Shown piece after piece: positions 4,653 through 60,544 of a DNA stretch of 64,000 bases; positions within the stretch are counted from its first letter, which is position 1, and each line of letters begins with the position of its first letter. Both the position numbers and the translations under genes were made by a program. The stretch is from Candidatus Cloacimonadota bacterium (lineage in GTDB: Bacteria > Cloacimonadota > Cloacimonadia > Cloacimonadales > Cloacimonadaceae): NCBI GenBank assembly GCA_023392795.1, contig JAEWNJ010000115.1:10952-74951 (forward strand), given 5' to 3'. The notes under the pieces were generated by a model. The model saw nothing but the letters and a program-made list of their open reading frames with translations. It was not told where the DNA came from and made no database searches.

Positions 4653-4674
4653 CCGGGGGTGGTGTCACCCCCGG
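4653..4674 (-). terminator. GC-rich hairpin between the COG2403-like gene and arcC (possible attenuating terminator)
   Basis: CCGGGGGTG/CACCCCCGG 9-bp stem with a 4-nt loop. On the minus strand it is followed by CTTTAGCTTTAT, only moderately T-rich. Confidence 0.4.
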
Positions 4675-4701
4675 TATCTTATTGATAGCTATATGTTTAG
4701 T

Positions 4702-20766: not shown

Positions 20767-22503
20767 ATGATGAAAAGACTTCTCATTCTCAGTCTGATCC
20801 TATTCCTTGGTATTGGTCTTCATGCTCAGGGCACCATAGTGGTTTGGGGAAATCCTCATAAAAAAGTAGCAAACCATGTTCCCCCCGGAGACGATTTCAT
20901 CGAAATCGCCGGCGGTAACGATTTCGCTATAGCTCTGCGCAGCGACGGCTCCCTGGAAAGCTGGGGTAATAACAACACCGTTGTAAACAACACTCCTCCA
21001 GGAAACGACTTTATAGCGATTGCTGCGGGTGAATATCATGCCATCGCGCTAAAATCCAATGGCTCTGTAGTAGGTTGGGGGGGGAATGGCTACGGACAAA
21101 GCAATACTCCACCCCATAGTGATTTCGTTAAGATAGCTGCCGGGACCAGACACAATATTGGCTTACGGGCAAATGGTGAAGTGTATGCCTGGGGCGACAA
21201 TACTCATGGTAAATGTAACGTAACCCCCGGCAACTATATAGATATAGCTGGAGGTATCTCTTACAGCCTGGCGATCAAGAGCGACGGCTCCATCGTAGGC
21301 TGGGGGGGAGGTTGGAATGGAGAACTGAACGTACCGAGCGGCAATAACTTTGTTCAGATATCTGCCAAGTACCAACATGCTATTGCGCGTCGGGCGAATG
21401 GCACAATCGTAGCTTGGGGTAACAACACTGGCAGCCTGAATGTCCCTGCCGGTAACTATATTGACATGGCAGCAGGCTGGCAGGGTAATGTCGCCATCAA
21501 TACTGATGAAGAGCTGGTTGCCTGGGCTAACCTTTGGGTGTTGAAAACAATCCCGGCATGGGTGCAGGATTTGACGATTGTCAAAGTAGATGGTGGAAAC
21601 AGCTTCAATATCGGTCTTACCGGAGAGTTTACCAGCGATGACATCGATGGTGACGGTGTGGCCAATGGCATCGATGAATTCCCGGAAGATCCTCTGCGAG
21701 CTTATACACTGAAGTATCCTCTGGGATCGTCAACCGATTGGGGTACCCTGGCCTATGAGGATTTATGGCCTCGACAGGGAGATTATGAATTCAACGATCT
21801 TGTCCTGGGATATCAAATCAACTTAGTTTTGGATGCCGGGATGAAGGTGAAGGATATCAATGGCGATTTCTTGCTACGCGCAATCGGTGCAAACAAGAAG
21901 AATGCCTTTGCAATCGAGTTTCCCTTTGCCAGTACGGCTATTGAAACGATAACCAGTTCTGTCAACGGGTCATCCTATGACATGCCGTTAATTGCGGCAG
22001 GGGATCACGTGATCCTGAAAGTAATATCTTCAACCGTTGATTTTGTGGGTGTCCTGAGCAATGGCTTCTATTGGAATACTCAGCCTGATCATCCTAATCA
22101 CGATCCCATACCAATCAATTTCAAAATAACGTTGACTGATACATACGATCTAAACATCGCTCCCGCATGGGGACTCTGGAATCCTTACCTGATGGTAGGA
22201 GGGGATCCCGGGCATGAAATCCATTTACCGGGTTTTCCGCCCACAGTGCAAGCCGATCCTTCCCGTTTTGCCACCGAAGATGATACCACTGATCTGACTC
22301 AGGGGAGATACTACAAGACCATCGACAACCTTCCCTGGGCCTTGAACCTTCCCATTAGCTGGAAGTATCCGATTGAAGGCTCACCAATCACTAATGCCTA
22401 TATGGCCTTTGCGCCCTGGGCAGAAAGCAATGGAACACAGTATCAGGATTGGTATGAGATGATCCCCGGCAATATCAACGCTGACCTGATCTATAATCCT
22501 TGA
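20767..22503 (+). CDS. secreted RCC1-like repeat protein with Ca-binding DxDxDG linker and LruC-type C-terminal domain
   Basis: About five repeats of the G.NDF..IA.G..H.IAL...G....WG type. DIDGDGVANGIDEFPEDP. Then the GTLAYEDLWPRQGDYEFNDLVLGY motif recalled from LruC/DUF4842 domains. Confidence 0.6.
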   Translation: MMKRLLILSLILFLGIGLHAQGTIVVWGNPHKKVANHVPPGDDFIEIAGGNDFAIALRSDGSLESWGNNNTVVNNTPPGNDFIAIAAGEYHAIALKSNGSVVGWGGNGYGQSNTPPHSDFVKIAAGTRHNIGLRANGEVYAWGDNTHGKCNVTPGNYIDIAGGISYSLAIKSDGSIVGWGGGWNGELNVPSGNNFVQISAKYQHAIARRANGTIVAWGNNTGSLNVPAGNYIDMAAGWQGNVAINTDEELVAWANLWVLKTIPAWVQDLTIVKVDGGNSFNIGLTGEFTSDDIDGDGVANGIDEFPEDPLRAYTLKYPLGSSTDWGTLAYEDLWPRQGDYEFNDLVLGYQINLVLDAGMKVKDINGDFLLRAIGANKKNAFAIEFPFASTAIETITSSVNGSSYDMPLIAAGDHVILKVISSTVDFVGVLSNGFYWNTQPDHPNHDPIPINFKITLTDTYDLNIAPAWGLWNPYLMVGGDPGHEIHLPGFPPTVQADPSRFATEDDTTDLTQGRYYKTIDNLPWALNLPISWKYPIEGSPITNAYMAFAPWAESNGTQYQDWYEMIPGNINADLIYNP

Positions 22504-51880: not shown

Positions 51881-52784
51881 CTATTTCAGCATGAGCATCT
51901 TTTTGCTTACGCTCTTACCATTTGTGGTTAAGCGATAGTAGTACACGCCGCTGGAGCATTTATTGCCCCGGGAATCAGTGCCATCCCAGACCACGGTATG
52001 AGGTCCGATGGAATCTCGTTTGTTCAGGAGTCGCTTCACAAGCTGCCCCTTCAGATTGTAAACTGTCAACTGCACTTCCCCGTCTTCAGGTAAATCGTAG
52101 CCTATGTTTGTAATCGGATTGAAGGGGTTGGGGAAGTTCTGCTTCAGTTCCGCCACGGGTGATACGCTGGTGCAATTCTGGGGATCGGATATGGCTATCA
52201 GGTAGTAAGGGTTTGGTCCTTTTGATACTTGAAATTGCTTACTATCCATCCGGTAGATTTTTTTGTTGGATGCTCCGGATTTTGAGGGATAATAGAATAC
52301 CAGGAAGGAATTCTCCGGCGTAATTTCTTCTCCCTCATCCAGATATGCGCAAATATGCAACAGACTATCTTCCACTACCACCGCACCTTTGCAGATATCA
52401 TTTACATATAGACCAATCTCCGCTGGCAAATCTGCGTCTTTACTTTGGGGTAATGTAACGTAGAAAGGAGTATAGGATTATCGTATTATCAATCAGCTCT
52501 TCACTATTCAACTCTGGGTCATAAGTACTCCTAAAAGTCAGGTCACGGGGAAAGCCTATAAGCTGAATGTTCTCGATGTACACTCCGGGTAGTATGACAA
52601 TATCATCTACTGAATCGTCTCCCAATGCTCGTGCCACAGCGTCGTTCACGGTAGGGAATGGATACTCCTCTGACCCATCAGGATTGAGGGCGGTAGAATC
52701 GTCATCAACATACAGCGAAGTTGCCCACGCTGAGCTGAGAGTAAGGATAAAAAGAGAGAACAGCAGTGCTTTAAAGAAGCGCAT
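51881..52784 (-). pseudogene. internally deleted, frameshifted paralog of the 901-aa beta-helix gene (cassette copy 2, gene 1)
   Basis: ORF 52440-52784 matches about the first 105 aa of 56103-58802. ORF 51881-52429 matches its last 182 aa at about 88% identity by eye. The junction near 52430-52470 changes frame. Confidence 0.8.
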
Positions 52785-52792
52785 TGCTACTA

Positions 52793-52802
52793 GGGGGGGG
52801 GG
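52793..52802 (-). repeat. homopolymeric tract G10 (C10 on coding strand) in the leader of the decayed cassette gene
   Basis: Counted directly. Lies between SD-led ATG 52821 and ATG 52784. Confidence 0.9.
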
Positions 52803-53238
52803 CTTGATGTGTCTTGATCATGGTTCGATCTCCTTTTTTATGTTGCCGGTTTATCCCGGCGTTTTGATAAGAGAATGATCCGTTCATCGTCTTCAATTCT
52901 GCAGGCAGCACAAAATGTTCCAGTTTACAAGTTCAGGTCTGAGCTGGGTGTTTTCAAATATTTTTTAGTGGCCTGAGCTTGTCAAGAGATATCTTGCGAT
53001 ACACACATATTGTCTGAATATTTCTACTAGAGCCCATTACAAAAGGAAAGCACGGATTTCTTATCCGGGGATTTACTCTTAGCGCGGAATCTTTATCAAT
53101 GTGGAAGCTATGCTAACAAGCAAGCGCAGAGGGGCTCAGAGGATTGACAAATTCCATTGTTTCCATAATTGGCAAGCATGGGTAGCACCCTGAGCCCCGA
53201 AGGGGCGCAGGCTGTTGACAAAATCCACTTTCCACGAA

Positions 53239-53508
53239 GGCCGGAGGCCGAGAAAATCAAGCGACTGCAGCGGTTCGCCCTCCCATAGGATTCGACACGT
53301 CCCGTGTCGAAAGCGAGCAACGCTCGCTTCTCAAAAGATAAGCAGCTGCGCTGCTTATCTTTTCTCGGCCTCCGGCCTCGTTCGACACAACCGGGGTCCC
53401 CAAGGCGGAGCAAAGCGAAGTCTTGGGGTGGAGCCGGGGTCCCCAAATCGGAGCGCAGCGAAGGTTTGGGGTGGAACTGGCGTGTCGAATCCTATGGGAG
53501 GGCGAACC
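53239..53508. repeat. GC-rich island of interleaved perfect inverted repeats, small hairpins and a 43-nt tandem duplication
   Basis: 28-bp inverted repeat 53272-53299/53481-53508. 18-bp inverted repeat 53239-53256/53360-53377. Tandem units 53391-53433 and 53434-53476. Hairpins at 53293-53309, 53313-53327 and 53337-53361. Confidence 0.85.
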
Positions 53509-53593
53509 GCCGTTCGCCCCTACAGTGGGTGATGTGATGAAGGGATTCAAACAGGCGCTACGGCGAGCGCCGGTACATTCGCGGCGCAGCCGC

Positions 53594-56074
53594 CTATTTC
53601 ATAAGAAGCATTCTCTTGGTTTGGGTATTCTTGGGGCTGCTGACGCGGTAGAAATATACGCCGCTGGCTACAGCCTGATTATTCATGTCTCTGCCGTCCC
53701 ACACCACACTGTGCATTCCGGCAGGCATCTCAGCATTGACAAGGCTCTTGACCAATTGTCCCTTGATGTTATAGATGTCAAGCTGCACATTCGAGGCTTC
53801 CGGTAAGCTGTAAGCGATGGTGGTAGTGGGATTGAAGGGATTGGGGTAGTTTTGCTTAAGCATCAGCTTATCCAGAACAGGCAGCTCCGGATCATCCACT
53901 GATACATAGGACTCCGAACCATATTCAAAGCATCCCATATCGATCCTGCCATCCCACACCCGGTGATTGCCGGCCAGGTCATAGGGAAGCAAAGCCAGGC
54001 CCGTGGTATCGGGAGTGGCAGCGTTTATGCATGGTGAGGATGCAGCTAGCTGCGCAAAAAAGGGACTCTCGGAATGTAGGCTGTAAAATTCTGGATTACC
54101 GCTGATATTGGTATCTGAATAATAGACGTTAGTATTAGATAGATCGCTCAATATTCCTGCTATGCCATTTCGGATATTATTGTAATCAAGATATGCATTG
54201 GAGATAGGAACAATGGGGGGAGAATTCATAACCAAAAGCTCGTATGTGCACTCAGGATTGTAGAAGATATTGTTATGCAACTGAATATTGCCGATAAGGT
54301 TAACTGCTGCCGGCCAGCCATAATTATTGATGAAAGTGTTATTGCTGAGCTTAAAACTATCTATACTCCTATTAGAAAAATGTATCGGACGGTAAATGTC
54401 TGACGATAGATTACTAAAGAGGCAATTGCTGATATTAACGTCAACAGGATTATTATCGCTGCGCCCATTTGAAATGTTTAAAGCAGGTTGCTGAGGAGCT
54501 GTAAAAAAATCTCGGAACACACAATTTTGTACTGCAATATTCTCTGTTACATTCACGTCAAACATGGTCATTGGCTCTCCATCAGGATCATTGAATACGG
54601 AAGCTATGTTACTGAATTCGCAATCAACAATAGAGCCACTTATCATATCCGGACTGTATACCCCCCCAATTTCCTGAGCACTTACATTCGCAACTTTCAC
54701 TTTTTCTAATTTGATGTTATGTGGAGCCAAAAGTAGAATGCTGCCAAGTTCATTTACAACAGAATCCGATATAATAATATCAGATAGTAATATGTTCTTA
54801 GATGTGCCACTTAGCCTGATATGCATAATCGGTTCTGTTATCGTTGCAGAAATTGATAGCCCCGCTAATGTTATATCTGACCTTTGTGTACCATTTATCA
54901 CCCCATTGGTTATTCCATCCATACTACTTGTTACAACAATGGAAGTTATGCTCGATCCTCCTCCGATGATATTTACATATGACTTCAATGGGATCGGAGG
55001 GCATAGCTGATCCTCACTTGTGTATGTCCCTGGCAGTATGTGTACGGTTTTTTTGTTAGTACTGTCTGCCGCTATCTTATGTACTGCCTTGGCGATAGTT
55101 TTCATGGCTTGTTCCGGAATTAAACCGCTGTTGTCGTCGTCCCCCTCAGGACTTACATAGATATCGCAGTTTACTTCCTGCCGAAAAGCGCGAAGATAAT
55201 GATAGTTATCACTGTAACCCTGTGTAGCCGTGAAATTGGCATGACGGCCAAAGTAGAAATCACCCGGATTAGGAACCGAGACCATATCCAGATAGATCTC
55301 CAGATTGGTCATCAGATCGGTTACCATGATGTCACAAGGGTTTGTGCTGTAGTTTTCGTACACGGAGCAGCGATTGACCTCATCGAAAACGATGTCTGGG
55401 GTGACACTTCTGGTACTCATGATGAAAATGCCACCTCCCGAAGCGGAGGCATGATTGCCGTGAACCTTGGTTCCAGCCAGATATAGTGAGGACTTATAGG
55501 CTGAAATACCTCCTCCCAATACTGCCCGGTTATTATTGATTACGCAGTTTATGATACTCACGCTGCAATTTGTACGGATAAAAACTCCACCACCCCATCT
55601 CTCGTCCTGAGCCCCAAAGGGATGACCGATGCCGTGTTCCAGGGTTAGCCCCCGCAGGGTAACGCCTTGTTCTTCATTGACGAATCTCACGCAAGGATTG
55701 GCGTTGTTGCCATCGATGATCGTGGTACTGATGAAGCTGCTGTCACCGGTGGCTGCTTCCAAAGAGCAGAGGGTGATTATCTTACCGCCAAACACTACAT
55801 TCTCAAAATACCTGCCCGGATACACCATGACTGTATCACCATTATTACAATCATTGATTGCGCTCTGGATGCTGGTGTAATCCTGTGAACCATCCAGGGC
55901 TACGGAGCGGGTTAGGGCGGATAAAGGAAGTACAAAGATAATGCACAGAGGAATATAAATAATCAGGAATCGGAAAGCCCAATTATAACTGAGCATAAGC
56001 CGGAGATGATCTGTCAGAGCCGGCATGAATGCCAGAGTACTTATAGTTGTATTGCTTTTTCTGGATGTCTTCAT
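53594..56074 (-). CDS. large right-handed beta-helix surface protein with C-terminal T9SS/FlgD-Ig-type sorting domain (cassette copy 1, gene 2)
   Basis: Same architecture as 49359-51851. ATG 56074 (MKTSRK) aligns with the paralog start and follows GAGGA. C-terminus NYPNPFNPTTTIAY...IYNIKGQLV...GVYFYRV. Confidence 0.75.
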   Translation of the reverse strand: MKTSRKSNTTISTLAFMPALTDHLRLMLSYNWAFRFLIIYIPLCIIFVLPLSALTRSVALDGSQDYTSIQSAINDCNNGDTVMVYPGRYFENVVFGGKIITLCSLEAATGDSSFISTTIIDGNNANPCVRFVNEEQGVTLRGLTLEHGIGHPFGAQDERWGGGVFIRTNCSVSIINCVINNNRAVLGGGISAYKSSLYLAGTKVHGNHASASGGGIFIMSTRSVTPDIVFDEVNRCSVYENYSTNPCDIMVTDLMTNLEIYLDMVSVPNPGDFYFGRHANFTATQGYSDNYHYLRAFRQEVNCDIYVSPEGDDDNSGLIPEQAMKTIAKAVHKIAADSTNKKTVHILPGTYTSEDQLCPPIPLKSYVNIIGGGSSITSIVVTSSMDGITNGVINGTQRSDITLAGLSISATITEPIMHIRLSGTSKNILLSDIIISDSVVNELGSILLLAPHNIKLEKVKVANVSAQEIGGVYSPDMISGSIVDCEFSNIASVFNDPDGEPMTMFDVNVTENIAVQNCVFRDFFTAPQQPALNISNGRSDNNPVDVNISNCLFSNLSSDIYRPIHFSNRSIDSFKLSNNTFINNYGWPAAVNLIGNIQLHNNIFYNPECTYELLVMNSPPIVPISNAYLDYNNIRNGIAGILSDLSNTNVYYSDTNISGNPEFYSLHSESPFFAQLAASSPCINAATPDTTGLALLPYDLAGNHRVWDGRIDMGCFEYGSESYVSVDDPELPVLDKLMLKQNYPNPFNPTTTIAYSLPEASNVQLDIYNIKGQLVKSLVNAEMPAGMHSVVWDGRDMNNQAVASGVYFYRVSSPKNTQTKRMLLMK

Positions 56075-56102
56075 ATCATATATTCCTCTGTGTTCCATTA
56101 TG

Positions 56103-58802
56103 TTACTTCAGCATGAGCATCTTTTTGGTGAGGCTCTTGCCGCCTGTGGTTAAGCGATAATAATAAACGCCACTGGAGCACTTATTGCCCCGGGAATCCT
56201 TGCCATCCCAGACCACGGTATGCGGGCCGAGAGAATCTCGTTTGTTCAAAAGCTGCTTAACAAGCTGTCCCTTCAGATTGTAAACTGATAACCGCACATC
56301 CCCGTCCTCAGGTAAATCATAGCTGATATTCGTAGTGGGATTGAAGGGATTGGGGTAGTTTTGCTTCAGTCCGACCAGAGGTGAAACACTAGTACAATTC
56401 TGGGGATCAGAAATTGCCAGGAAATAGTATGGATTTGTGTTTTTTGACATTTGCAATTGCTTGCTGTCCATGCGGTAGATTTTCTTGGTGGATGCTCCGG
56501 ACTTTGAAGGGTAGTAGAATACCAGGAAGGAATTCTCCGGCGTAATCTCTTCTCCCTCATCCAGATATGCGCAAATATGCAACAGACTATCTTCCACTAC
56601 CACCGCGCCCTTGCAGATATCATTTACATACAGACCAATCTCAGCCGGCAATTCTGCATCTTTACTTTGCGGCAAAGTTACGTAGAAAGGAGTATAGGAG
56701 GATTTCCCATCATAGCTGAATGCGGTTGGAGTGCTAAGGGTGAAGGGACGGACCGGATTGGGATTGTTCCAGGAAAAGGAGCAATCCTGGTCACTATACA
56801 GGATTACCAAGTCGCCGTAATTCAGAACAAAGCTCTTAGCGTGAATCCAGGAGCCATTGGGTTGCTTGATCATGGTCCATCTTTGGGTTTCGATGCGATA
56901 CACATGGTCAAGTACGGCGGCGAGCGCGTCCAAAGGCTTAGCGCTTTCTCGCTGGAAATAGCCCACCCAATTATCGCCGTATGAACCGTAACTATGCAAA
57001 TCTAGCACTGTTTCGGGTGGAATTAAAGATCCGGGTGTATGGATACTTATCAGGTCCGGGCAATCTTCCTGGAGCAGAACTTTGTAGCCTTGATGGCTGT
57101 TGACAATCTCATTACCCAGTATTAGCTCTCCACCACTATGCCTCATCTCATGTATGCTTGCCTGCTGGAATGGCTTATACATAACGTAGTCCAGAATATC
57201 TATATCAACTATTGGTTCAAAGAAAACTTCATTAACGCATGCATCAGTAGTTATGTCGTTCAATACCGGGAAGCACATCCATTTTGGAACTGTTGAGCCG
57301 GGTTCTGGCATCGTGTACCTGTCATAGTCGTGGGCAATCAGATATGGCCTTGCCCCCATATCTATCGGAGTTAGATCAAGTTCGTCCAAGACCTCTGGGT
57401 TGCCGCGGTCAATACATGGGCTGACGGCTACGGTGTCCCATCTCAGATTGTAACTGCTTTCATAAGAGCTTACAAACAGGGGATCAAGATCGATACTGCC
57501 ATCACCTTCGTCATTGTAAATATTTGAATCATGGGCATCATTTACACAGCAAAAACGGATTGGGATCATGATTGGGATAAAAACTCCCTGATTGTTGAAG
57601 GAACCACCATACAACTGCTGTATCTGTGTAGTGTTTTGATTGAATAAATTAGTCCCAGAAGTATTGTCATAGATAATGTTGTTGTTTATGGTTCCCCGGA
57701 TATGCTCCTCATCAGTTAGTCTGAGTATCCCTACTGCACAGTTCACATAAGGGCTAAAAACGCTTGATTCTTCAATAATCCTGTTATCTGTGATGGTGCA
57801 TTGGTTGATTTCCACATGATTATACCCACTTTCTCCTGGCACAATCACATGAAGCCCTCTTTGAATCTGGATTGTGGTTCTAAAAGGCCAATCAAATGTA
57901 GCCATCTGATCATTGATAGTTTTAGTAACATTATCGAATACTTCACAATATTCCATAATCAATCCGATATCATTAACAGCACAGGTATTGCGCCACACAA
58001 GAGCTGCAGCATTCCCGTAACACAAAGGGTTGTATAGCTCATGTTCTTGGTCCAGGAAAGATCTGTTTGAGTAGATCTTGCAGTGGGAAATCGTGCTATA
58101 ACCTCCAGCGAGGTACACTCCAGCGCCCTTAGATCCGTTTACAAGACCTCCGCCATGTGTATCAGGAGGCAATACTGAGTGTAGAAAATACAGAGCGTTA
58201 TCATGGATATTGGTGTTCGAAACCACGATGCTGGCATACAATCCGTAGATTCCTCCACCCCAACAAGCATAGTTTTCATATACATCGCACCATTTCATGC
58301 TCACATGCTGTTCCAAAGATGCTGTTCCAATTACGCAGATTCCTCCGCCCATTGTCCAGTTTTCCGGGTTTACCTGAGATTCCACAAAATGTCCCTTACC
58401 ATTTGTGATGCTCAACCCATAGAAACTGATTGTTGCATTGGCAGCACAATTTTTGATGTAGAACACGGGGTCGTAAGACTGGTCCATTCCACGAATTACA
58501 GTTGACTGTATTACTTCATCATTCCCTAAATCCGGATTATAGGTACTCCTAAAATTCAAGTTGCGTAGAAAACCTATAAGCTCAATATTCTCGTTGTACA
58601 CTCCCGGAAGTATGACTATATCATCAACGGTTGCATCTTCCCAAGCCTGGGTCACAGCTGCGTTCACATTTGCGAATGGGTGCTGTTCAGATCCGTCAGG
58701 ACTAATCGCGGTTGAGTTTATATCGACATATAACGATGTAGCCCATCCTGAACAGATGGTAAACAAAAAAATAACAATCAGCAATGCTTTGCTAGAGCGC
58801 AT
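56103..58802 (-). CDS. 901-aa beta-helix surface protein with C-terminal T9SS/FlgD-Ig-type sorting domain (cassette copy 1, gene 1)
   Basis: Signal peptide MRSSKALLIVIFLFTICSGWA. ILPGVYNENIELIG beta-helix start. C-terminus NYPNPFNPTTNISY...VYNLKGQLV...GVYYYRL. See the poly-C finding for an alternative upstream start. Confidence 0.75.
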   Translation of the reverse strand: MRSSKALLIVIFLFTICSGWATSLYVDINSTAISPDGSEQHPFANVNAAVTQAWEDATVDDIVILPGVYNENIELIGFLRNLNFRSTYNPDLGNDEVIQSTVIRGMDQSYDPVFYIKNCAANATISFYGLSITNGKGHFVESQVNPENWTMGGGICVIGTASLEQHVSMKWCDVYENYACWGGGIYGLYASIVVSNTNIHDNALYFLHSVLPPDTHGGGLVNGSKGAGVYLAGGYSTISHCKIYSNRSFLDQEHELYNPLCYGNAAALVWRNTCAVNDIGLIMEYCEVFDNVTKTINDQMATFDWPFRTTIQIQRGLHVIVPGESGYNHVEINQCTITDNRIIEESSVFSPYVNCAVGILRLTDEEHIRGTINNNIIYDNTSGTNLFNQNTTQIQQLYGGSFNNQGVFIPIMIPIRFCCVNDAHDSNIYNDEGDGSIDLDPLFVSSYESSYNLRWDTVAVSPCIDRGNPEVLDELDLTPIDMGARPYLIAHDYDRYTMPEPGSTVPKWMCFPVLNDITTDACVNEVFFEPIVDIDILDYVMYKPFQQASIHEMRHSGGELILGNEIVNSHQGYKVLLQEDCPDLISIHTPGSLIPPETVLDLHSYGSYGDNWVGYFQRESAKPLDALAAVLDHVYRIETQRWTMIKQPNGSWIHAKSFVLNYGDLVILYSDQDCSFSWNNPNPVRPFTLSTPTAFSYDGKSSYTPFYVTLPQSKDAELPAEIGLYVNDICKGAVVVEDSLLHICAYLDEGEEITPENSFLVFYYPSKSGASTKKIYRMDSKQLQMSKNTNPYYFLAISDPQNCTSVSPLVGLKQNYPNPFNPTTNISYDLPEDGDVRLSVYNLKGQLVKQLLNKRDSLGPHTVVWDGKDSRGNKCSSGVYYYRLTTGGKSLTKKMLMLK

Positions 58803-58814
58803 TGCCACTAGTGT

Positions 58815-58825
58815 GGGGGGGGGGG
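58815..58825 (-). repeat. homopolymeric tract G11 (C11 on coding strand) in the leader of the 901-aa gene
   Basis: Counted directly. Lies between SD-led ATG 58845 and ATG 58802. Confidence 0.9.
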
Positions 58826-59318
58826 AGCTGATGTGTATTGATCATGGTTTGATCTCCTTTTTTTTGTTCCGGTTCATCCCGGTATTTTTGCAAGAGAATG
58901 ATCTGTTCATCAACACCGATTCAGTTTCAATAACACACGGGTTCAGATTGCAGCTTCGGCACTTTTATAAAGCTGACGACATTTTTCAGACCTATTTGGT
59001 AATGTCAAGAGATATTTTGTCGTCTTCTGAAACATCCCAAAAATTCAGGTCATTTCAGAGTGCATGGGAAAGTAGAATAATTGGTACTAAAAGAATTATA
59101 GTGTGACAGAACACTCCCTGATGCGCAACTTTGCGTGATTATGCCAATGAATTGGACTGCTGATCTCCCTTGACACATAATCACTCGTTAATTAGCTGCA
59201 TATTTATGAAAAAGAACTGGCTCATACCTGATTACCTCCATCATGACTAGGCTTACCAAGCCAAAAGTATGGCGGGATTACCCGGATGGGATTCGGAGGA
59301 TTTGACCTGCGGTAACCG

Positions 59319-59417
59319 TCTGCTGGTTCACAGGCCACCTGCAACTCAGTTGGAACTCTCCTGCATCTCACGTGAGAGGAGTCCAGGAGGCTTGCTAGTT
59401 GCGAGCGAACCAGAAGA
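59319..59417. repeat. 99-nt structured element, copy B
   Basis: See copy A. Helices TCTGCTGGTTC/GAACCAGAAGA, CTCCT/AGGAG and the palindrome TCTCACGTGAGA. Confidence 0.75.
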
Positions 59418-59482
59418 GATGAACAGCTCTTCATCCTCTTCTTTTTCTTGACCACAAAGCCACTGTTGTGGAGATTGATCTG

Positions 59483-60544
59483 ATGAAGAGAATCATCCAC
59501 ATTGATATGGACGCTTATTTCGCTGCGATCGAGATCCGCGAGAATCCCTCGCTAAAGGGTAAATGCGTGATCGTGGGCGGCTCGCCGCACAGCCGGGGTG
59601 TGGTTTCCACCTGCTCCTATGAGGCGCGTAAGTACGGCGTGCACAGCGGGATGAGTTCATATCAGGCTTGGAAGCTTTGTCCCCAGGGAGTTTTCGTGCA
59701 TAGCAGCTTCCATCTCTATAAAGAGATCAGTCGCCAGGTGAGAGATATCTTCTATCAGGTGACCGAATTGGTGGAGCCCATGAGCTTGGATGAGGCCTAT
59801 CTGGATGTGACTGAAAACAAGCTTGGGGAGAGCGATCCAGCCGTCATCGCCAGATGGATAAAGGATGAAGTATTTCGGCAAACTCAGCTAACCTGCTCTG
59901 CCGGGGTTTCTTACAACAAGTTTTTGGCGAAGATCGGATCGGACATGAACAAACCGGACGGACTTACTGTGATCAATCCCGAGGATGTGCAGAATATTCT
60001 CTTTCACCTGCCCATCGGTAAGTTTCACGGCATCGGCAAAGTGACGGCAGCCCGTATGAAAAAGATGGGTATTCACAATGGGGAAGACCTCTATCAGCGA
60101 GACATGAGGGAACTCATCAAACACTTTGGCAAGGCTGGATTGTTTTATTACAATGTGGTGCGGGGTATCGATGAACGGGAATTGCACACCAGTTGGGAAC
60201 CGAAATCAATCTCTTGTGAAAGTACTTTTTACGAGGATATCGGGGATATGCAGGAACTGCTGGAACAGCTTCGACGCCTTTGCGATAAACTGGCTACCCG
60301 CATGAGTTTCAAAAACATCCAGGGGCAAAACCTGGTCTTGAAGCTGAAGTATGACAATTTTGAGTTGATCACCCGCAGTATGAGTTTACCGGAAATGACC
60401 AATGAACGGGAAATCCTGTATCAATACGCCGAGCAATTGATGGTGGGAAACTGGGACGCAGAGCGTAAGGTGCGTTTGATCGGGATCGGAGTTGGCAAGC
60501 TGGACAATCGCAGCGACAATGAGCAGCTGACTTTCCTCCCCTGA
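59483..60544 (+). CDS. dinB: DNA polymerase IV (Y-family)
   Basis: MKRIIHIDMDAYFAAIE, SLDEAYLDV and a little-finger region. ATG 59483 is preferred over the GTG at 59468. Confidence 0.9.
   Translation: MKRIIHIDMDAYFAAIEIRENPSLKGKCVIVGGSPHSRGVVSTCSYEARKYGVHSGMSSYQAWKLCPQGVFVHSSFHLYKEISRQVRDIFYQVTELVEPMSLDEAYLDVTENKLGESDPAVIARWIKDEVFRQTQLTCSAGVSYNKFLAKIGSDMNKPDGLTVINPEDVQNILFHLPIGKFHGIGKVTAARMKKMGIHNGEDLYQRDMRELIKHFGKAGLFYYNVVRGIDERELHTSWEPKSISCESTFYEDIGDMQELLEQLRRLCDKLATRMSFKNIQGQNLVLKLKYDNFELITRSMSLPEMTNEREILYQYAEQLMVGNWDAERKVRLIGIGVGKLDNRSDNEQLTFLP

Follow-up and report, generated by a model that had tools for sequence, protein, structure and literature searches.

Why would a gene for a secreted protein be preceded by a start codon that has a strong Shine-Dalgarno (SD) sequence and leads into the wrong reading frame? 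This question is raised by a locus on the minus strand of a 64,000-nucleotide stretch of DNA from a Candidatus Cloacimonadota bacterium (contig JAEWNJ010000115.1; the entire stretch is hereafter called the window), where an unbroken run of 11 C nucleotides separates an SD-led ATG from the ATG that gene callers choose for an 899-amino-acid cargo protein of the type IX secretion system (T9SS). A preliminary description of this sequence had proposed that slipped-strand changes in the length of the tract turn the gene ON and OFF. That proposal is supported by conservation of the tract, by polymorphism in its length, by the occurrence of all three reading frames, and by an upstream ATG that appears to be the native start in relatives. 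We consider it likely that the C tract serves as a slippage-driven ON/OFF frame switch.

A poly-C tract between two start codons

The leader is read on the minus strand. Its AAGGAG sequence is separated by 8 nucleotides from ATG 58845, after which the order is ATG ATC AAT ACA CAT CAG CT, C11, ACAC TAG TGG CA, and finally ATG 58802. Specifically, the open reading frame (ORF) that begins at the SD-led ATG, MINTHQLPPPHTSGNAL, terminates at TAG 58794-58792. The two ATG codons are 43 nucleotides apart (3n+1), such that a tract of C10 or C13 would join them in one frame to give a protein that begins with MINTHQLPPPTLVAMRSSK. This spacing confirms the fusion predicted in the preliminary description, whose coordinates for the SD, ATG 58845, C11, TAG 58794-58792 and ATG 58802 are all borne out. 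On its 5′ side, the main frame stays open up to TGA 58844-58842, and GTG 58808 also lies within it. As had been pointed out for ATG 58802, neither this codon nor GTG 58808 is preceded by even a four-nucleotide SD match, a feature present for 31 of the 37 long ORFs of the window. The putative signal peptide MRSSKALLIVIFLFTICSGWA, followed by TS, looks canonical when read by eye.

The C11 tract is not due to chance. Runs of G or C in the window number 11 at length six, four at length seven and one at length eight, and the only runs of at least nine are those at 52793-52802 (10 nucleotides) and 58815-58825 (11 nucleotides), the former within a second copy of this leader. From base composition, about 0.02 runs of at least 11 are expected in the window. 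Moreover, the triplet PPP that such a tract encodes is found zero times in the 15,859 codons of 33 window genes, and 24 of the 30 G or C runs of at least eight nucleotides in 149 kb of related loci occupy the leader position. Elsewhere in the window, a G8 (21077-21084) and a G7 (21302-21308) are located inside a plus-strand long ORF (20767-22503), away from its 5′ end.

Tract length, frame and start codon in related loci

A scan of GTDB species genomes at the protein level with the 899-amino-acid protein revealed no relative. The related loci came from the DNA of orthologous proteins and from a DNA scan for the pattern of the leader, which mostly returned chance matches to an SD plus ATG that were then filtered for a downstream C run. 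The pattern demanded GGAGATC...ATGATCAA, and the conservation of those bases among the matches is therefore partly a matter of ascertainment. The relatives carry the promoter, 5′ untranslated region (5′UTR), SD and ATGATCAA leader as in the window, followed by an unbroken C run. The comparison of tract lengths suggested in the preliminary description thus finds both the tract and the SD-led ATG in orthologues, with lengths that vary from C7 to C19, and the run is kept unbroken even where the proteins are only 43-61% identical.

Specifically, we observe tracts of C8 (L128), C9 (L001, L004, L005), C10 (L003, L083, L212, L213), C11 (L002, L026) and C13 (L206, L214). Leaders that belong to one orthologue cluster, or are closely related in another way, differ among themselves, with C11, C12 and C16 in L191, P0147 and L006, respectively, C12 in L058 and C7 in L059, and C19 in L115 and C9 in L145. 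Another such group has C12 in L208 and C16 in L209-L211, and the tract is the sole indel between L208 and L209 over 4,615 bp at 99.85% identity. The same is true of L004 and L206, where C9 and C13 are the only length difference in 4,086 bp at 99.2% identity, and L191 and L006 are 100% identical over 2,742 bp before diverging as C11 versus C16. On its 13-kb contig, L115 has two poly-C leader tracts, a C16 at the contig edge (9-24) and the C19 (8637-8655).

All three frame offsets are represented among these loci. Of approximately 17 states, about 4 are in frame (offset 0, or ON), 8-9 are at offset +1 and 4-5 are at +2. The ON alleles are those of L004/L005, L208, L058, L006 (by inference) and P0142/P0144, whereas the window, L026, L128, L191, L206, L209 and others carry OFF alleles. 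Gene callers annotated in-frame alleles as longer members of the same 90% clusters, namely P0004 with MIKLKQGVFAPPRIAM, P0136 with MIITKQGTFTPPPRIAM, and P0142/P0144. The N-terminus of P0004, MIKLKQGVFAPPRIAMRISK..., has the upstream ATG in frame, and that of P0136 reads MIITKQGTFTPPPRIAMCVNK.... Two partial proteins, P0003 and P0134, open with poly-proline right at a contig edge or a few residues from one. The occurrence of all three offsets argues against a fixed overlapping upstream ORF or a fixed programmed frameshift, and a programmed +1 frameshift, or a fixed overlapping upstream ORF whose frame is conserved, was rejected for this reason.

Which ATG, then, is the start of the gene? In the tract-less relative L143, the same SD and ATGATCAAA run directly into MIKNKTNRIYTPSTVMSVPKILLCMLLMLVVFGVLYA, the signal peptide, and in the C6 relative L181 the SD-led ATG is likewise in frame with the signal peptide. 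Furthermore, in L058 and L145, which represent two other gene families with this leader, the tract is followed by the hydrophobic core with no ATG in between. Because the first two loci are continuous from the leader onward and the other two lack an internal ATG, these sequences indicate that the SD-led ATG is the native start of the gene family and that the n-region of the signal peptide contains the tract.

Several observations weigh against a frame switch, and the first of these concern the exact window locus, where the evidence for variation is weak. C11 is read in three assemblies at this locus, namely for the window, for the contig that holds it, and for L002. Although L001 has C9, the only other differences in 8,427 aligned bases are three substitutions, located at 58837, 58849 and 58866, all at most 50 nucleotides from the tract on its 5′ side. 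These are probably the result of read degradation after the homopolymer, and may alternatively stem from local mutagenesis, or from gene conversion with the paralogous leader as donor. As all three substitutions in 8.4 kb adjoin the tract, L001 was downgraded as clean evidence of variation. Similarly, L207 has C17 at a noisy contig end, and the contig end of L210 on the 5′ side of its tract is noisy as well. Short-read data close to the tract are therefore unreliable, and single differences of 1-2 nucleotides in tract length should not be over-read.

Given such data, the tract could in truth be an invariant, in-frame C10, with C11 no more than a homopolymer miscall. The clustered substitutions and noisy ends beside the tract in L001, L207 and L210 are what a sequencing or assembly artefact would leave, as are the frequent contig breaks at the tract (L006, L211, L137, P0003, P0134), which also count in favor of the switch. 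However, L002, an independent assembly with 100% identity over 5.6 kb, repeats C11, C16 is seen in three samples and C10 in five, and the differences of 4-10 nucleotides among relatives are too large for miscalls of one nucleotide in either direction. We consider an artefact of this kind very unlikely.

The remaining points against the switch concern the constancy of a second tract, the frames and the internal ATG. A second copy of the leader (copy B), whose presence in itself speaks for the switch, lies in the window about 6 kb from the C11 leader (copy A), with the promoter-like cTTGACA and the 5′UTR common to both. Copy B also has 8 nucleotides between AAGGAG and ATG, its two ATG codons are 37 nucleotides apart, which again gives offset +1, and its upstream ORF stops at TAA 52773-52771. 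Five assemblies show C10 as the tract of copy B, including one that is 2.7% diverged. Likewise, about half of all states (8-9 of about 17) are at offset +1, which is not a significant proportion and is compatible with a preferred frame. In addition, the internal ATG is conserved in the orthologue group of the window gene, and both OFF frames stop within about 12 nucleotides of it. Reinitiation at this codon could therefore make the OFF state leaky, as might a +1 slip on CCC-C, which is a shift-prone motif restrained by EF-P and m1G37.

These same observations, namely offset +1 in both window copies and as the commonest state, the constancy of C10 in copy B, and a conserved internal ATG near both OFF-frame stops, would fit a stable tract in a leader that is permanently out of frame. 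Synthesis of the protein would then depend on +1 slippage of tRNA-Pro on CCC-C or on termination and reinitiation at ATG 58802, and EF-P, tRNA modification or the supply of proline, not mutation, would tune its output. Against such an arrangement, close relatives show all three offsets, in-frame alleles included, and the tract changes by 4-5 nucleotides between otherwise identical contigs. Moreover, tract-less relatives have one continuous ORF, and the internal ATG is absent from other families that bear the leader. We therefore regard a fixed out-of-frame leader as unlikely.

Two further alternatives accept the tract as it is. If RNA polymerase stutters on the run, mRNAs of mixed length would be made, and the length of the DNA tract would set only the proportion that is in frame. 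Runs of 9-19 identical bases suffice for such slippage elsewhere, which is documented mainly for A/T runs and much less for C/G. This explanation is compatible with all of the present data but leaves the variation in DNA length unexplained, and we judge it quite improbable. Alternatively, the frameshift might be an inactivating mutation in a dispensable paralogue that is decaying. In favor of decay, copy B retains its leader in front of a remnant that has lost 1.83 kb internally compared with the full-length L003 (the full-length copy B allele is found in other metagenomes, P0002 and L003), and L121 and L178 have an interrupted tract (C7TC5) and lack a long ORF. In contrast, the 899-codon ORF downstream of the C11 tract is intact and identical in three assemblies, and the tract remains unbroken across orthologues that share as little as 43-61% of their residues, which makes a pseudogene extremely unlikely.

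Under the favored slipped-strand switch, transcription would proceed from the conserved TTGACA-type promoter about 160 nucleotides upstream, and ribosomes would load at the strong AAAAGGAG site and initiate at ATG 58845. When the tract is C10, C13 and so forth, the product would be a pre-protein that begins with MINTHQLPPPTLVAMRSSK, whose n-region is 14 residues longer, and that is exported by Sec and displayed via the T9SS. Replicative strand slippage would add or remove C nucleotides, thereby shifting the frame and bringing translation to a stop no more than about 10 nucleotides from the internal ATG 58802. The state captured in the window assembly (C11, offset +1) would correspond to an OFF phase, or to a low one at most. 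Slippage during replication is the presumed cause of the length changes; reversible switching in a population and a changed protein level are presumed as well, and the selective reason may lie in phage- or adhesion-related variation.

The leader module and its surroundings

The leader and poly-C tract form a module found ahead of several T9SS cargo genes of Cloacimonadota, both paralogous and unrelated ones. For this reason, the lineage appears to hold several loci that could be switched independently. A three-level version of the switch may also be considered, in which the in-frame state gives high expression, offset +1 gives low expression through slippage on CCC-C or reinitiation at the internal ATG, and offset +2 is off. 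The full combination, a conserved and portable switch cassette in front of many T9SS genes across Cloacimonadota that would equip a free-living, uncultured digester syntroph with phase-variable genes at multiple loci, perhaps at three levels, together with a helix that masks the SD, is doubtful when taken as a whole.

The promoter-like site of the window leader begins with TTGACA at 59008-59003, and cTTGACA is invariant among 13 related leaders at about 160 nucleotides 5′ of the ATG. A promoter-spacer model was rejected, as the tract lies about 180 nucleotides 3′ of the conserved TTGACA, past both the SD and the ATG. In L026, a G8 (741-748) directly adjoins the −35 TTGACA of the leader on its 5′ side. 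Within 58700-59500 there is no predicted terminator-like site, and in L143, L181, L004 and L208 the leader ORF and the gene form one continuous frame; a model of attenuation by a leader peptide was rejected on these grounds.

The 5′UTR of the window leader includes a short hairpin 9 nucleotides 5′ of the SD. A hairpin is also found 8-14 nucleotides 5′ of the SD in L004, L026, L128, L115, L137, L143, L058, L059, L121 and L160. The stems vary by subfamily yet still pair, as CCGG/CCGG, GAC/GTC (with a UUCG loop), GACC/GGTC, or CAGCC/GGCTG (with a GCAA loop); they were read from the sequences, and MAFFT set stems from separate subfamilies out of register with one another. About 35 nucleotides upstream, a pyrimidine stretch (CTCTT, CCCTT or CTTTT) can pair with AAGGAG in predicted folds. 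We speculate that this predicted CTCTT helix is an SD-sequestering element, which may provide a further layer of control, and a structured, SD-masking 5′UTR may be common to these T9SS cargo genes. No Rfam family matched 52000-59600 at E<=1.

Table 1. Positions of the leader elements and cassette genes in the window.
Feature	Positions	Strand	Remarks
Promoter-like site, copy A	58981..59008	minus	TTGACA, 16 nt, AAAAAT
Pyrimidine stretch CTCTT	58892..58896	minus	able to pair with AGGAG of the SD in predicted folds
5′UTR hairpin	58869..58882	minus	CCGG-GATGAA-CCGG, 9 nt 5′ of SD; read from sequences
SD (AAGGAG)	58854..58859	minus	within conserved AAAAGGAGATC
SD-led ATG	58843..58845	minus	putative native start of the gene family (MIK/MIN...)
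Poly-C(11)	58815..58825	minus	candidate slipped-strand frame switch; C10 or C13 in frame
Out-of-frame ORF of 17 codons	58792..58845	minus	MINTHQLPPPHTSGNAL*; spans internal ATG; present assembly
Internal ATG	58800..58802	minus	start chosen by gene callers; no SD; kept in orthologue group (..RIAM/..LVAM)
Putative Sec-type signal peptide coding region	58740..58802	minus	MRSSKALLIVIFLFTICSGWA, then TS; by eye
T9SS type A cargo gene (899 aa)	56103..58802	minus	5′ end would move to 58845 when ON
Second cassette gene (834/826 aa)	53594..56098	minus	T9SS cargo; weak beta-helix matches; own SD
Promoter-like site, copy B	52957..52985	minus	TTGACA, 17 nt, AATATT
Paralogous leader, copy B	52771..52835	minus	AAGGAG 52835-52830, ATG 52821, C10 52802-52793, internal ATG 52784
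Remnant of paralogous 899-aa gene	51881..52784	minus	ORFs of 114 aa and 182 aa

The poly-C gene encodes a T9SS type A cargo protein, with scores of 39.5 bits for TIGR04183 (cutoff 23) and 31.2 bits for PF18962, the Pfam family Por_Secre_tail (cutoff 27). The region as a whole is a two-gene cassette duplicated in tandem, and both cassette genes encode T9SS type A cargo. In the second of these genes, a G7 lies on the coding strand at 54661-54667 in the window, and at the matching site (4673-4680) the paralogue in L003 has a G8 at which the gene is split exactly, into 483 and 370 amino acids. The site may be another slip-prone one; the alternative is a sequencing error. Between the cassettes, positions 53100-53590 form a GC-rich intergenic block. 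It contains a 43-nucleotide tandem repeat (53391-53475) as well as long inverted repeats such as taggggcgaacggcggttcgccctcccataggattcgacac with its complement, and it is where the L001 contig ends. The block could be a repeat element or a structured RNA.

The homologues carry the names Candidatus Cloacimonetes or Cloacimonadota and include named T9SS cargo in Cloacimonadota metagenome-assembled genomes. One member of the homologue cluster comes from an anaerobic digester metagenome, and the lineage is Candidatus Cloacimonadota, probably living in anaerobic digesters. The divergent neighbor of the switch, at 59468-60544 on the plus strand, is a gene for a translesion polymerase of the DinB/Pol IV (IMS) family. 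Enzymes of the DinB/Pol IV class are known for −1 frameshifts at homopolymer runs. The adjacency of the DinB-type gene is kept in L001 and may be a coincidence.

Comparison with known switches

The preliminary description knew of no report of such a switch in this lineage or for T9SS cargo. A literature search agrees, as it found no description of phase variation in Cloacimonadota or of slipped-strand variation of T9SS cargo. Most likely, the type of switch is one already known, mainly from pathogens, in a lineage for which the search found no prior description. If confirmed with reads, the finding would place contingency loci in an environmental syntroph of a non-host-associated, digester-abundant uncultured phylum, and would indicate phage or surface-attachment pressure as a driver in digesters. 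There are practical consequences as well: gene callers pick the wrong ATG or split such genes, short-read assemblies break at the tract, and tract length could mark strains or populations in digester metagenomes.

Among known systems, the pilC1 and pilC2 genes of Neisseria have a poly-G/C tract inside the reading frame (Jonsson et al. 1991, as cited in PMC5953494), with a run of about 9-20. As in pilC, the Cloacimonadota leader places a G/C homopolymer in the 5′ coding part of a surface gene, where a change in length flips the frame. Unlike pilC, the tract described here belongs to an uncultured lineage and a T9SS-secreted cargo protein, has a conserved internal ATG just past it, and is part of a promoter, 5′UTR, SD and MIK leader module that is conserved across several gene families.

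In the opa genes of Neisseria, CTCTT/CTTCT repeats are located in the signal-peptide coding region of many paralogues. The opa genes are listed with a genic CTTCT repeat (7-21). Here too there is a multi-copy family of surface proteins in which each copy has its own leader-peptide repeat, and the opa copies switch independently. The two systems differ in that opa has a pentamer repeat and encodes an outer-membrane beta-barrel of a host-adapted pathogen, whereas the leader in the window has a homopolymer and precedes a T9SS cargo gene.

Campylobacter jejuni and Helicobacter have many poly-G/C tracts per genome in surface-related genes. Their lengths differ from strain to strain and also inside a strain, and both organisms lack mismatch repair. 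Those tracts are scattered in ORFs and share no leader cassette, unlike the tract in the window. In Streptococcus gallolyticus, phase variation of the pil1 leader peptide operates by ribosome-dependent disruption of a transcription terminator (PMC3894217). By contrast, no terminator-like site is predicted for the poly-C leader, and the genes of relatives simply begin with the leader ORF. Finally, Bordetella fim and Neisseria opc and porA resemble this locus in having a variable poly-C/G run upstream of a surface-protein gene. Their tracts alter transcription from a position between the −35 and −10 elements or close to them, whereas the tract of the Cloacimonadota leader lies past the SD and the ATG.

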